This document shows, in pieces, positions 24,591-36,915 of a stretch of 50,343 nucleotides of DNA. The position numbers and the translations under genes were made by a program. Position 1 is the stretch's first letter. The number at the start of each line of letters is the position of its first letter. Location: IMG/VR virus record IMGVR_UViG_3300020042_010754, positions 1 to 50,343 of that record. One strand, given 5' to 3'. The notes beneath the pieces are model-generated. The model saw nothing but the letters and a program-made list of their open reading frames with translations, did no database searches and was not told the DNA's origin. Source of the DNA: a virus. Taxonomy: Duplodnaviria > Caudoviricetes.

Positions 24591-24619
24591 TTGACTTTTT
24601 TGTTGTAGGCATATATACT
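24591..24619 (+). promoter_or_regulatory. sigma70 promoter of attenuator leader 1
   Basis: TTGACT-17-TATACT. Confidence 0.75.
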
Positions 24620-24624
24620 ACACT

Positions 24625-24717
24625 ATGATGACGCAAATTGCACTCACACTCAATCTAATACCTACCAGCCTGGAGCTGGCCTATGAGAGCGATCGTCGGC
24701 GGGGTCTTTGCCTGTAA
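24625..24717 (+). CDS. Putative leader peptide 1 (MMTQIALTLNLIPTSLELAYESDRRRGLCL)
   Basis: Leaderless ATGATG at the predicted TSS; overlaps the antiterminator arm. Confidence 0.6.
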   Translation: MMTQIALTLNLIPTSLELAYESDRRRGLCL

Positions 24718-24741
24718 GTAAACTTATTACTTCACTCAAAG

Positions 24742-24766
24742 ACCCGCTAACTAGGCGGGTTTTTTT
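24742..24766 (+). terminator. Intrinsic terminator with competing antiterminator
   Basis: ACCCGC/GCGGGT + T run; GGGTCTTTG (24702) pairs with CAAAGACCC (24737). Confidence 0.85.
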
Positions 24767-24773
24767 ATGGCGG

Positions 24774-25794: not shown

Positions 25795-25914
25795 TATAGA
25801 AACACATTAATTGAAAAGCGTCCATGGACTAGAATGACCATCTAGTTAGATGCTTGGATAGGGATGTAAAAAGCCCCTGCTCGTCACAGTTGTCCTAGTG
25901 TGTTTCTATATGGT
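25791..25914 (+). ncRNA. Conserved-stem spacer RNA, copy C
   Basis: ACCATATAGAAACACATTA...TAGTGTGTTTCTATATGGT. Confidence 0.72.
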
Positions 25915-26039: not shown

Positions 26040-26124
26040 GCTATATAAAAACACATTAGAAGCCTTCGTGACTGTAGGCAAGCAGGTCTCTAAGTCGTTT
26101 CCGACTAGTGTGTTTCTATATGGT
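26040..26124 (+). ncRNA. Conserved-stem spacer RNA, copy D
   Basis: GCTATATAAAAACACATTAG...CTAGTGTGTTTCTATATGGT. Confidence 0.72.
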
Positions 26125-26396: not shown

Positions 26397-26460
26397 TATA
26401 AAACACATTAGTTCCCCGTAGGGATAATTGACAACAGGTTCATGCTAGTGTGTTTCTATG
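26395..26460 (+). ncRNA. Conserved-stem spacer RNA, copy E
   Basis: CATATAAAACACATTAG...CTAGTGTGTTTCTATG, exactly between tRNA-Asp and tRNA-Leu. Confidence 0.72.
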
Positions 26461-28352: not shown

Positions 28353-28381
28353 TTGACAACAATCACTAAATACCTTATAAT
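28353..28381 (+). promoter_or_regulatory. Consensus sigma70 promoter of attenuator leader 2
   Basis: TTGACA-17-TATAAT with CTAAATA inside. Confidence 0.85.
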
Positions 28382-28387
28382 ACAAAC

Positions 28388-28519
28388 ATGATGAACACAA
28401 ACACTTTTAACCGCATGCATTCCGTACCGACCTTGGCACAGCCCTGGTCACGTGCCTTTGCCTGCGGCAAAAGTATTACAGGGAATCATAGGGTCCGAGA
28501 AGGAATCAGTTGCGCCTAA
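28388..28519 (+). CDS. Putative leader peptide 2 (MMNTNTFNRMHSVPTLAQPWSRAFACGKSITGNHRVREGISCA)
   Basis: Leaderless ATGATG at the predicted TSS; overlaps the antiterminator. Confidence 0.6.
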   Translation: MMNTNTFNRMHSVPTLAQPWSRAFACGKSITGNHRVREGISCA

Positions 28520-28544
28520 CAGCAGTAACTTACAAACTTCAAGG

Positions 28545-28577
28545 ACCCTGGAACTAAAAACTCCAGGGTTTTTCTTT
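28545..28577 (+). terminator. Intrinsic terminator with competing antiterminator
   Basis: ACCCTGGA/TCCAGGGT + TTTTCTTT; AGGGTCC (28490) pairs with GGACCCT (28543). Confidence 0.85.
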
Positions 28578-28585
28578 ATGTGCAA

Positions 28586-30252: not shown

Positions 30253-30298
30253 AACTGTATTTAATCAATGTTATTGACTCAATATTGTTAATCAACAG

Positions 30299-30327
30299 TT
30301 GACAACATTCTGAAATTGTTGTACAAT
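30299..30327 (+). promoter_or_regulatory. sigma70 promoter of the Lys tRNA group
   Basis: TTGACA-17-TACAAT. Confidence 0.8.
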
Positions 30328-30352
30328 ACAAACTTAAACAAAAAGGTACTAT

Positions 30353-30376
30353 ATGAAGCGACCAGCTAAACTGTAG
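30353..30376 (+). CDS. Putative mini leader peptide MKRPAKL
   Basis: AAAGGT RBS; AAG and AAA Lys codons; hairpin starts at the stop codon. Confidence 0.45.
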   Translation: MKRPAKL

Positions 30377-30436
30377 TGTCAATCTAGATCCCATGTAGGT
30401 CCGGGTTGGCACGTGAAAGACAATTTTACATATCAA

Positions 30437-30511
30437 CCCTCTAAGATGTTAAGGCAGCATGCCGGACTCTTAATCCGTGACGTCCGAGTTCAAATCTCGG
30501 TGGAGGGACCA
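30437..30511 (+). tRNA. tRNA-Lys (CTT)
   Basis: Cloverleaf, loop CTCTTAA. Confidence 0.9.
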
Positions 30512-30515
30512 CAAT

Positions 30516-30589
30516 GGGATCGTAACTTAAAAGTAAAGTAGCTGGCTTTTAACCAGTAAAAGAAGGGGCAGTACCTTCCGGTCCTACCA
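30516..30589 (+). tRNA. tRNA-Lys (TTT), atypical D and T loops
   Basis: Loop CTTTTAA; T loop GGCAGTA; no GG in D loop. Confidence 0.85.
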
Positions 30590-30664
30590 TAGATAAACAC
30601 ATTGGGATTAAATTCTGGTCACCCCAGCGCATAAGAGGTTGCGTACAGTGTGTTTTTCTATGGT
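30586..30664 (+). ncRNA. Conserved-stem spacer RNA, copy G
   Basis: ACCATAGATAAACACATTG...CAGTGTGTTTTTCTATGGT between tRNA-Lys and tRNA-His. Confidence 0.7.
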
Positions 30665-31461: not shown

Positions 31462-31713
31462 ATGTGGGAATATGTCGTAACCTTTTTTGCTGTGTTCTTC
31501 ACAGATATCTTTTACACTTACTACCTAAAAGCAGTACAAGATGAACGTGCAATGGCTGCTAGTTTGTGGGCCACCGTGGTGTTCCTGGTGGCCTGCGTGG
31601 CAGTGATCAACTACACCACAAATTCATGGTTGCTGATTCCAGCCGGTGCAGGTGCATTTTTAGGCACCTGGGTGGGCATGCAATTGAGACGTAACAAAAA
31701 TAATGGAAGATGA
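31462..31713 (+). CDS. Small multi-TM membrane protein
   Basis: Three hydrophobic segments; stop overlaps the tRNA-Ser 5' end. Confidence 0.7.
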   Translation: MWEYVVTFFAVFFTDIFYTYYLKAVQDERAMAASLWATVVFLVACVAVINYTTNSWLLIPAGAGAFLGTWVGMQLRRNKNNGR

Positions 31714-31796
31714 TGCAGCGGGGATGGTCCTGCGACTGGCCTTGAAAACCAGGTTCTGAGAAATTGGATGGGGTTCGACTCCTCCGTCTTCCGCCA
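31705..31796 (+). tRNA. tRNA-Ser (TGA), enlarged D arm
   Basis: Loop CTTGAAA, long variable arm, GCCA. Confidence 0.88.
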
Positions 31797-36387: not shown

Positions 36388-36416
36388 TTGACAACAAAAT
36401 CAAATAAATATATAAT
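36388..36416 (+). promoter_or_regulatory. Consensus promoter of tmRNA
   Basis: TTGACA-17-TATAAT with ATAAATA inside. Confidence 0.85.
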
Positions 36417-36420
36417 GTAA

Positions 36421-36848
36421 GTTATTGCTGTATGAAGCAAAGAGAAAAGTGTTCTGGACGGGGGTGCGAATCCCCCCAGGTCCACCAAAAGTATTGTGAA
36501 CTGAAACAAGTAATGAACCCGAACTGTGTACAGGTAGAGGTGTAGTGAACAAAAGTAGGTGGCACAGGCTAGTACAACGGAAGAGGTGTTAAACCCGTAG
36601 ATTAAGTTCCTACGCTCTCGCTCAACCGATGCCAGTAGATCGTACCTACTATACTTTTGATGGGCCTGACCTAGATTCGACAGGGCAACAAGTAAATTAG
36701 TGGACAGCTCGGCAATGTAGAAGCCGTTAGGACAGGGGTGACCCGGTCGTAGACACAAAAAAAGTAAAAGCAAACGACTCACAGTTCGCATTAGCAGCCT
36801 AACAGCCGCTTAGGGTAGTTATACCTCGTAACAGAAAATAGCAATAGG
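36421..36848 (+). ncRNA. ssrA: Circularly permuted two-piece tmRNA, tag ANDSQFALAA
   Basis: Acceptor piece with T arm ends CAGGTCCACCA (36487). Coding piece starts GGGCCTGA..GATTCGAC (36662) with G3:U70. Tag ORF 36770-36802. Confidence 0.92.
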
Positions 36849-36872
36849 CTCTTCGGAGCCTATTTTTTTTTA
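36846..36872 (+). terminator. Intrinsic terminator
   Basis: TAGGCTC-TTCG-GAGCCTA + T run. Confidence 0.92.
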
Positions 36873-36915
36873 TTCAAGATACATCATATAAATACTTGCC
36901 TAATAGGAGAATAAC

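Follow-up and report, generated by a model that had tools for sequence, protein, structure and literature searches.

Two tRNA-Lys genes in a stretch of viral DNA are preceded by a mini-ORF containing lysine codons and by a hairpin, and the locus raises the question of whether, and how, translation of the mini-ORF could govern the tRNAs behind it. The window (the whole stretch analysed, 50,343 nt) is read as part of an uncultured jumbo phage. It contains 30 tRNA calls (ARAGORN) and one permuted tmRNA, which matches a betaproteobacterial Rfam model. An RNase H-like gene (Pfam PF04308) located within the tRNA cluster has 539 confirmed relatives among viral contigs; the best 80 of the 539 were retrieved as a protein-anchored set, the longest contigs of which measure 260–364 kb. 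When cultured phages were searched by blastn, only the tRNA-Gly region gave matches among 40 of 141 records listed, and no record reached 80% coverage of the query. RNA runs containing the stretch are labelled as lake or fresh water. Contigs of runs X1, X3 and X4 match parts of 30259–30546 without differences; a control stretch is covered likewise, and such contigs show neither transcript ends nor strand. The permuted tmRNA (36395–36893) is of the betaproteobacterial type and has the tag ANDSQFALAA, a hint to the host group. A gene of the fatty acid desaturase family (Pfam PF00487; 29488–30252, minus strand) lies head to head with the leader promoter.

The promoter, RBS, mini-ORF, hairpin and both tRNA-Lys genes were all found where an initial annotation of the DNA had placed them (Table 1). 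tRNA-Lys(UUU) of the window was missed by ARAGORN and detected by Rfam. It opens with a G1–U72 pair in the window and in most of the relatives shown. Hairpin P1 folded alone has an energy of −16.8 kcal/mol (z −2.2). An alternative pairing of GGGTTG in its arm with CAACCC at the tRNA 5' end had been suggested, and it is the predicted minimum-energy fold of 30333–30482. Judged from the start of the tRNA, the RNase P site would fall within this junction. The fold of the window alone is weak evidence, with z values of −1.4 to −2.2; the case for more than chance rests on conservation.

Table 1. Features of the tRNA-Lys leader and of related elements. Positions refer to the window unless another locus is named.
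Feature	Position	Strand	Basis or remark
Sigma-70-type promoter-like site, TTGACA-17-TACAAT	30299..30327	+	11/12 consensus matches; TTGACA 30299–30304, spacer 17 nt, TACAAT 30322–30327
Shine-Dalgarno-like site AAAGGT	30342..30347	+	Sequence; RBS-like word in 92/99 parsed relatives
Mini-ORF MKRPAKL and stop (ATG AAG CGA CCA GCT AAA CTG TAG)	30353..30376	+	
Last Lys codon AAA, predicted sensor	30368..30370	+	First base 8 nt before hairpin
Hairpin P1, predicted protector	30376..30412	+	Starts on G of stop codon (its last base)
Anti-junction stretch (P1 inner stem and loop)	30387..30402	+	Complementarity
P1 3' arm, complementary to 5' junction of tRNA-Lys(CUU)	30403..30409	+	
Small hairpin P3, between P1 and first tRNA	30413..30429	+	Folding
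5' junction of tRNA-Lys(CUU), arm target	30433..30439	+	Spans expected RNase P site
tRNA-Lys(CUU), CCA encoded	30437..30511	+	ARAGORN, Rfam
Junction of both tRNAs, target of anti-junction stretch	30505..30521	+	15 predicted pairs, −24.6 kcal/mol in window
tRNA-Lys(UUU), CCA encoded	30516..30589	+	Rfam 48.9 bits; cloverleaf fold
Second leader type	L001:7558–7602, L005, L010, L014, L017, L021, L026, L206–L324		
Third leader type	L066:8028–8171, L065:6839–6967, L075, L076, L078		
Recurring closing stems	25798–25912, 26047–26122, 26400–26459, 30595–30662		

Viral contigs were searched with a pattern for the hairpin only, the ORF and the tRNA lying outside the pattern. The search gave 120 loci of an estimated 370, and 105 of these were distinct. 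The outer five P1 pairs and GGTC were fixed by the pattern, and invariance there is no evidence; a locus found without the pattern (L063) shows compensatory changes in the outer P1 pairs. An in-frame M-K-x(2-5)-K-x-UAG that ends on the first hairpin base is present in 103 of the 105 distinct loci, and the next gene is a tRNA-Lys within 60 nt, again in 103. Conservation of the mini-ORF together with tRNA-Lys, put forward as a check when the locus was first described, was thereby borne out in relatives. The exceptions are L163, a chance match with neither ORF nor tRNA-Lys, L099, where the stop is lost and the frame enters the hairpin by a few codons, and L102, which is cut off within the tRNA. 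In the protein-anchored set, the element is present in each of the 14 distinct tRNA-Lys(CTT) contexts, the window being one of them, and in L003 and L081 it precedes a lone tRNA-Lys(TTT). Bacterial genome contigs gave four matches, all on MAG contigs of unrelated taxa and with the same element before tRNA-Lys; these copies are likely binned phage DNA. The element is conserved and very probably functional, by a mechanism that is predicted below.

The 99 mini-ORFs that could be parsed encode 36 different peptides of 6–9 residues. Their length varies in whole codons, always 5' of the last Lys, and the codon following the last Lys takes 17 forms. In 103/105 loci, Lys occupies the second codon and also the next-to-last codon ahead of the stop, the last-Lys codon being AAA in 98 and AAG in 5, and the background rate of AAR triplets in the A-rich upstream leader is 0.085 per position. 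Arg occupies codon 3 in 87/99. The order of codons in the window, AAG then AAA, had been taken to mirror the gene order CTT then TTT. This match was ruled out, as just 6 of the 81 loci scored as CTT+TTT have that order and 75 have AAA/AAA. Read-through of the UAG into a protein was also considered; its frame would traverse both tRNAs. In L047 and L029 the cluster contains a tRNA call with a CTA (amber-reading) anticodon (ARAGORN, relaxed threshold); the stop of the mini-ORF is UAG.

The P1 3' arm and the cognate CUU junction pair with a mean energy of −10.2 kcal/mol, compared with −7.67 for shuffled partners (0/2000 shuffles; 62 haplotypes from 93 records, with shuffles that ignore relatedness). 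At one column, which on the junction side is the base before the tRNA, the 84 loci have the arm and junction bases A–T (32), T–A (35), G–C (5) and T–C (12); in the 12 T–C loci the pairing is offset by one position. On a tree from which the arm and junction segments were excluded, arm and junction each change 14 times and 8/8 independent pairs agree (p 0.008). The arm-to-tRNA pairing of the initial annotation thus covaries among relatives. The small hairpin P3 has a predicted energy under −0.5 kcal/mol in 68/104 relatives. It is tandem-duplicated in L086, L101 and L117, where the spacer grows to about 50 nt and the arm pairing is retained.

Two features had been overlooked: the constant spacing between the last Lys codon and the hairpin, and a second complementarity, in which the loop and inner stem of P1 pair with the junction of both tRNAs. 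The sequence complementary to this anti-junction stretch comprises the 3' end of tRNA-Lys(CUU) with its CCA, then the spacer, then the 5' strand of tRNA-Lys(UUU). The energy of the loop with the cognate UUU junction is −17.35 kcal/mol, against −13.2 for shuffled partners (0/2000 shuffles; 77 haplotypes from 96 records, relatedness being ignored here too), and for junctions of other tRNAs the match to the loop is as good in 1.2% of cases. Counting GGUC, the helix measures 12–18 bp (mean 14.9) in 84/84 two-tRNA loci and reaches from the CCA of tRNA-Lys(CUU) into the 5' strand of tRNA-Lys(UUU). Two tree-based tests of the loop pairing agree in direction, with median p values of 0.06 and 0.125, both above 0.05. 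A pseudoknot of the loop with the spacer before the first tRNA was tried and rejected (−4.42 vs −4.23 kcal/mol, 95/2000 shuffles).

G–U pairs are present in 84/95 loop duplexes, which points to constraint at the RNA level. They also bear on a neutral origin, in which template-switch mutation between quasi-palindromes would keep the complementary stretches alike and the ORF would be there by chance. Template-switch mutation can produce covariation without RNA function. Such an origin is nevertheless hardly credible given the G–U pairs, an arm that has two partners to fit, and an ORF, RBS and register that are conserved independently of the search pattern.

The mRNA channel is described as accommodating 11 nt downstream from position +1 of the P-site codon (PMC7282821). 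When the A site contains the last Lys codon, the hairpin starts at +12, and two frameshift stem-loops at 11–12 nt are reported to slow A-site tRNA binding (PMC7282821). Folding was carried out for 84 loci with the ribosome-covered part removed, using footprints of 7, 9 and 10 nt counted from the A-site start. When the transcript stopped at the first tRNA and the A site was occupied by the last Lys codon, P1 was predicted to be kept in 79, 68 and 60 of the 84 loci (7, 9 and 10 nt) and the acceptor stem of the tRNA in 79, 72 and 70. Advancing the ribosome by one codon left P1 in 0/84, so the hairpin tolerates a ribosome no further along than the Lys codon. Once the stop had entered the A site, P1 was again kept in 0/84, arm–tRNA pairing was predicted in 80/84 and the acceptor stem in 30/84; the bases immediately 5' of the tRNA are paired in this predicted OFF fold in 80/84.

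In the full two-tRNA transcript, a masked rod is the equilibrium fold whatever the ribosome position. Pairing of the loop with the UUU junction was predicted in 75/84 loci at the Lys stall (9-nt footprint) and in 84/84 at the stop. At the stall, forcing both acceptor stems costs a mean of 5.5 kcal/mol, with 7.9 for the copy in the window; at the stop the mean cost rises to 9.0. The shift from stall to stop exceeds 2 kcal/mol in just 59/84 loci and is negative in some. The copy in the window leans OFF, with a P1 probability of 0.34 at the 9-nt footprint and 0.99 at 7 nt. The mutually exclusive helices covary, and a switch is predicted in growing transcripts, though not at equilibrium of the full transcript. 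Because the equilibrium fold of the full transcript is masked everywhere, an ON state would have to be a kinetic product; the folding model is one without tRNA tertiary structure and without kinetics.

A second leader type, absent from the window, is frequent in relatives that have only tRNA-Lys(UUU) in the fetched stretch. It has an RBS, encodes M-x-S-D-K-x-x-K, an unrelated acidic peptide, and reads directly into tRNA-Lys(UUU). The pattern used for it consisted of the RBS, the D-K core and the first bases of the tRNA, the ATG and the last Lys codon being excluded, and yielded 120 loci, 77 of them distinct. An ATG is present in 75/77 and Lys at codon 8 in 76/77 (AAG 57, AAA 19). The start of tRNA-Lys(UUU) lies 7–9 nt after the first base of codon 8 in 75/77, and at exactly 8 nt in 58. 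The offset from the last Lys codon is 8 nt to the hairpin in the first type and mostly 8 nt to tRNA-Lys in the second, and as an unrelated leader the second type is counted as independent support for the Lys-codon register. RBS-led leaders are concentrated at Lys tRNAs (13/14 CTT and 22/44 TTT contexts). They also occur at Gly(GCC) (16/45) and Asp(GTC) (8/26), with fewer at most others. The scan was confined to RBS-led ORFs, and among the matches listed no RBS-led cognate leader was evident at a non-Lys tRNA.

These observations can be set against the idea of a constitutive aid to folding or timing, in which the leader would fix yield or processing order and the ORF would merely open the hairpin, with no sensing of lysine. 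Bacterial genes often have Lys as their second codon, and the masked fold is the predicted equilibrium at every ribosome position, both as such an aid would have it. It would not explain why 103/105 loci retain the penultimate Lys while its neighbours vary, why an unrelated leader holds a Lys codon at the same offset, or why RBS-led leaders gather at Lys tRNAs, and a constitutive role is judged quite improbable.

Alternatively, the peptide or the minigene itself could be the effector, for instance by drop-off of peptidyl-tRNA-Lys, leaving the RNA pairing secondary. The minigenes of lambda bar act through peptidyl-tRNA drop-off, and the ORF discussed here is likewise very short, with Lys codons, a good RBS and Arg at codon 3 in most copies. 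The diversity of its peptides (36 among 99) argues against this, as do a hairpin register that is fixed while ORF length varies, the covariation of the RNA pairing in cis and the unrelated acidic peptide of the second leader type. An effect of this kind is given very little weight.

Ribosome-gated masking of pre-tRNA ends, acting as a feedback switch on both tRNA-Lys, is the explanation judged fairly probable. While the last Lys codon awaits decoding in the A site, the hairpin would stand closed at the mRNA entry and hide both antisense stretches, so that the tRNAs could fold; with no ribosome on the leader, the hairpin would likewise be shut and the tRNAs free. A ribosome moving past the last Lys codon would open the hairpin. 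The 5' end of tRNA-Lys(CUU) is then predicted to be covered by the freed arm, and its CCA end, together with the start of tRNA-Lys(UUU), by a helix of about 15 bp with the freed loop, so that three tRNA ends in all would be masked. Masked precursors would presumably escape RNase P and be degraded. tRNA-Lys would thus likely mature only while ribosomes stall for want of working lysine tRNA, and slow decoding of Lys codons would lead the phage to supply tRNA-Lys. The closed hairpin would have to act as a kinetic trap until the RNase P cut, aided by tertiary folding of the tRNA. Against the explanation, the leader has only two or three Lys codons, and a terminating ribosome leaves quickly. In synthetic constructs, masking of the 5' leader is reported to control RNase P (PMC8925977).

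The sensed pool is, more tentatively, that of tRNA-Lys(UUU). The sensor codon is AAA in 92/92 ORF-bearing loci with the CUU tRNA and AAG in 5/10 without it, and the five AAG loci look related, not independent. An AAA sensor in the presence of the CUU tRNA fits sensing of the UUU pool, because CUU reads only AAG. The trigger, with similar reserve, may be host anticodon nucleases or starvation. PARIS is described as cleaving host tRNA-Lys, with T5 tRNA-Lys rescuing infection (PMC11464382); by analogy, this case could be a possible motive for a Lys-specific sensor. A broader proposal can be made with somewhat more doubt than confidence in all its parts jointly. It is that of a naturally occurring kind of switch by which a tRNA would govern its own maturation, a Lys-starved ribosome holding the lock open for RNase P to release tRNA-Lys. 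The clade would have reached this design at least twice, once as a hairpin lock and once by reading directly through into the tRNA, and would use it on demand against host nucleases by which tRNA-Lys(UUU) is destroyed.

A similar promoter-like site within 130 nt upstream was found in just 29/103 relatives, which suggests that many copies of the element lie within longer tRNA transcripts. Masking would suit a long tRNA transcript, since its effect would be limited to Lys tRNAs. The initial annotation had noted that a U-tract terminator is missing. Indeed, no terminator (stem plus U-tract) is present in 30376–30436 of the window, where the sole T run is 4 long and lies inside P3, and no terminator-like site was found between ORF and tRNA. 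Control through folding or processing, one of the routes proposed there, is the best reading of such a leader.

With the intrinsic terminator missing, Rho may be involved, and the same sensor could have another output: the open state would lead to Rho-dependent termination or to endonuclease cleavage, silencing everything downstream, beyond maturation of the Lys tRNAs. The masking helix, at a mean of 14.9 bp, is near the size of helix that RNase III can cut, and the promoter of the window may also serve the downstream tRNA-His and tRNA-Met. Nevertheless, the antisense stretches track the exact ends of both Lys tRNAs, the long helix needs both tRNA ends to have been transcribed already, and a promoter of its own is lacking in 74/103 copies. 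Cleavage of the helix would moreover stay Lys-specific and be compatible with masking of the tRNA ends. An operon-wide output is considered unlikely.

Among known systems, the nearest at the input are the leader-peptide (ribosome-mediated) transcription attenuators, such as trpL, hisL, thrL and pheM of pheST. In common with these, the phage element has a short leader ORF with cognate codons and an RBS, ribosome position is predicted to pick between exclusive RNA folds, and a stall would mean ON. Unlike these, it is phage-borne and without an intrinsic terminator, it has 2–3 cognate codons only, one of them in fixed register, and the tRNA itself would be regulated, by alternative helices that invade its ends. 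Attenuators regulate biosynthetic enzymes, transporters or synthetases, whereas the next gene here is a tRNA-Lys. The element is attenuator-like at its input and stands outside the attenuators in its terminator and regulated genes.

On the output side, the synthetic RNase P riboswitches of Ender et al. are described as masking the 5' leader of a pre-tRNA with a hairpin and thereby controlling RNase P cleavage (PMC8925977). Those constructs are designed and theophylline-responsive (PMC8925977), whereas the phage element is natural, its predicted input is the ribosome and its mask would lie over the acceptor strands and CCA of two tRNAs. T-box riboswitches are similar in that the state of a specific tRNA feeds back via alternative leader folds, and differ in that, as generally described, they recognise uncharged tRNA directly and work without an ORF. 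Rfam gave no T-box match in 30299–30436 up to E 5, and over the leader area Rfam 15 gave tRNAs only, plus a sub-threshold opposite-strand match over a tRNA. In the T5 case, a phage tRNA-Lys can replace host tRNA-Lys cut by the anticodon nuclease AriB of PARIS, and the account given concerns tRNA resistance, not regulated supply (PMC11464382). A natural precedent was not found in the literature searched, which comprised titles and abstract starts; most subscription papers and supplements, such as the motif lists of comparative RNA screens, fall outside it.

Why phages carry tRNAs is described as an open question (PMC10264068). If ribosome-gated masking holds, phages would keep watch on a single tRNA and make good its loss when needed, and the ideas of codon compensation and nuclease evasion would become testable in a 300-nt construct. 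tRNA processing would also join the outputs of ribosome-stalling leaders; such an output was found only in synthetic form in the literature searched.

Further leaders were observed at tRNA genes. The third type is a basic ORF, some 40 residues long, extending into tRNA-Lys(UUU), its last Lys being 7 nt (1 locus) or 15 nt (4 loci) from the tRNA. Processing of the tRNA would in this case yield an mRNA without a stop. A suspected resemblance of these basic ORFs to ArfA was not borne out in the two that were tested, which gave no Pfam match.

The initial annotation had counted the tRNA-Lys leader as a further case of leader codons that match downstream tRNAs. The AAG-then-AAA order fails as part of that claim, and the two other leaders in the window do have conserved relatives. 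One of these (28353–28580) comprises a promoter, a leaderless 43-codon ORF and a terminator-like hairpin with a T run before tRNA-Trp/Arg/Ala/Gln/Ile, and Trp is kept in all 23 related loci with a parsed peptide. The other (24591–24770) has a promoter, a leaderless 30-codon ORF and a terminator-like hairpin about 470 nt before tRNA-Glu and tRNA-Tyr. Its hairpin gives a weak match to the Rfam Trp_leader (E 0.047), and its relatives are looser leaders rich in Glu, Asp or Tyr.

Elsewhere in the cluster, a long-armed tRNA with the anticodon TGA (Ser) at 31705–31792 was missed by ARAGORN and shows a weak Rfam match to tRNA-Sec (34.5 bits). Closing stems of the type AAACAC...GTGTGTTT recur around unrelated inserts between tRNA genes.
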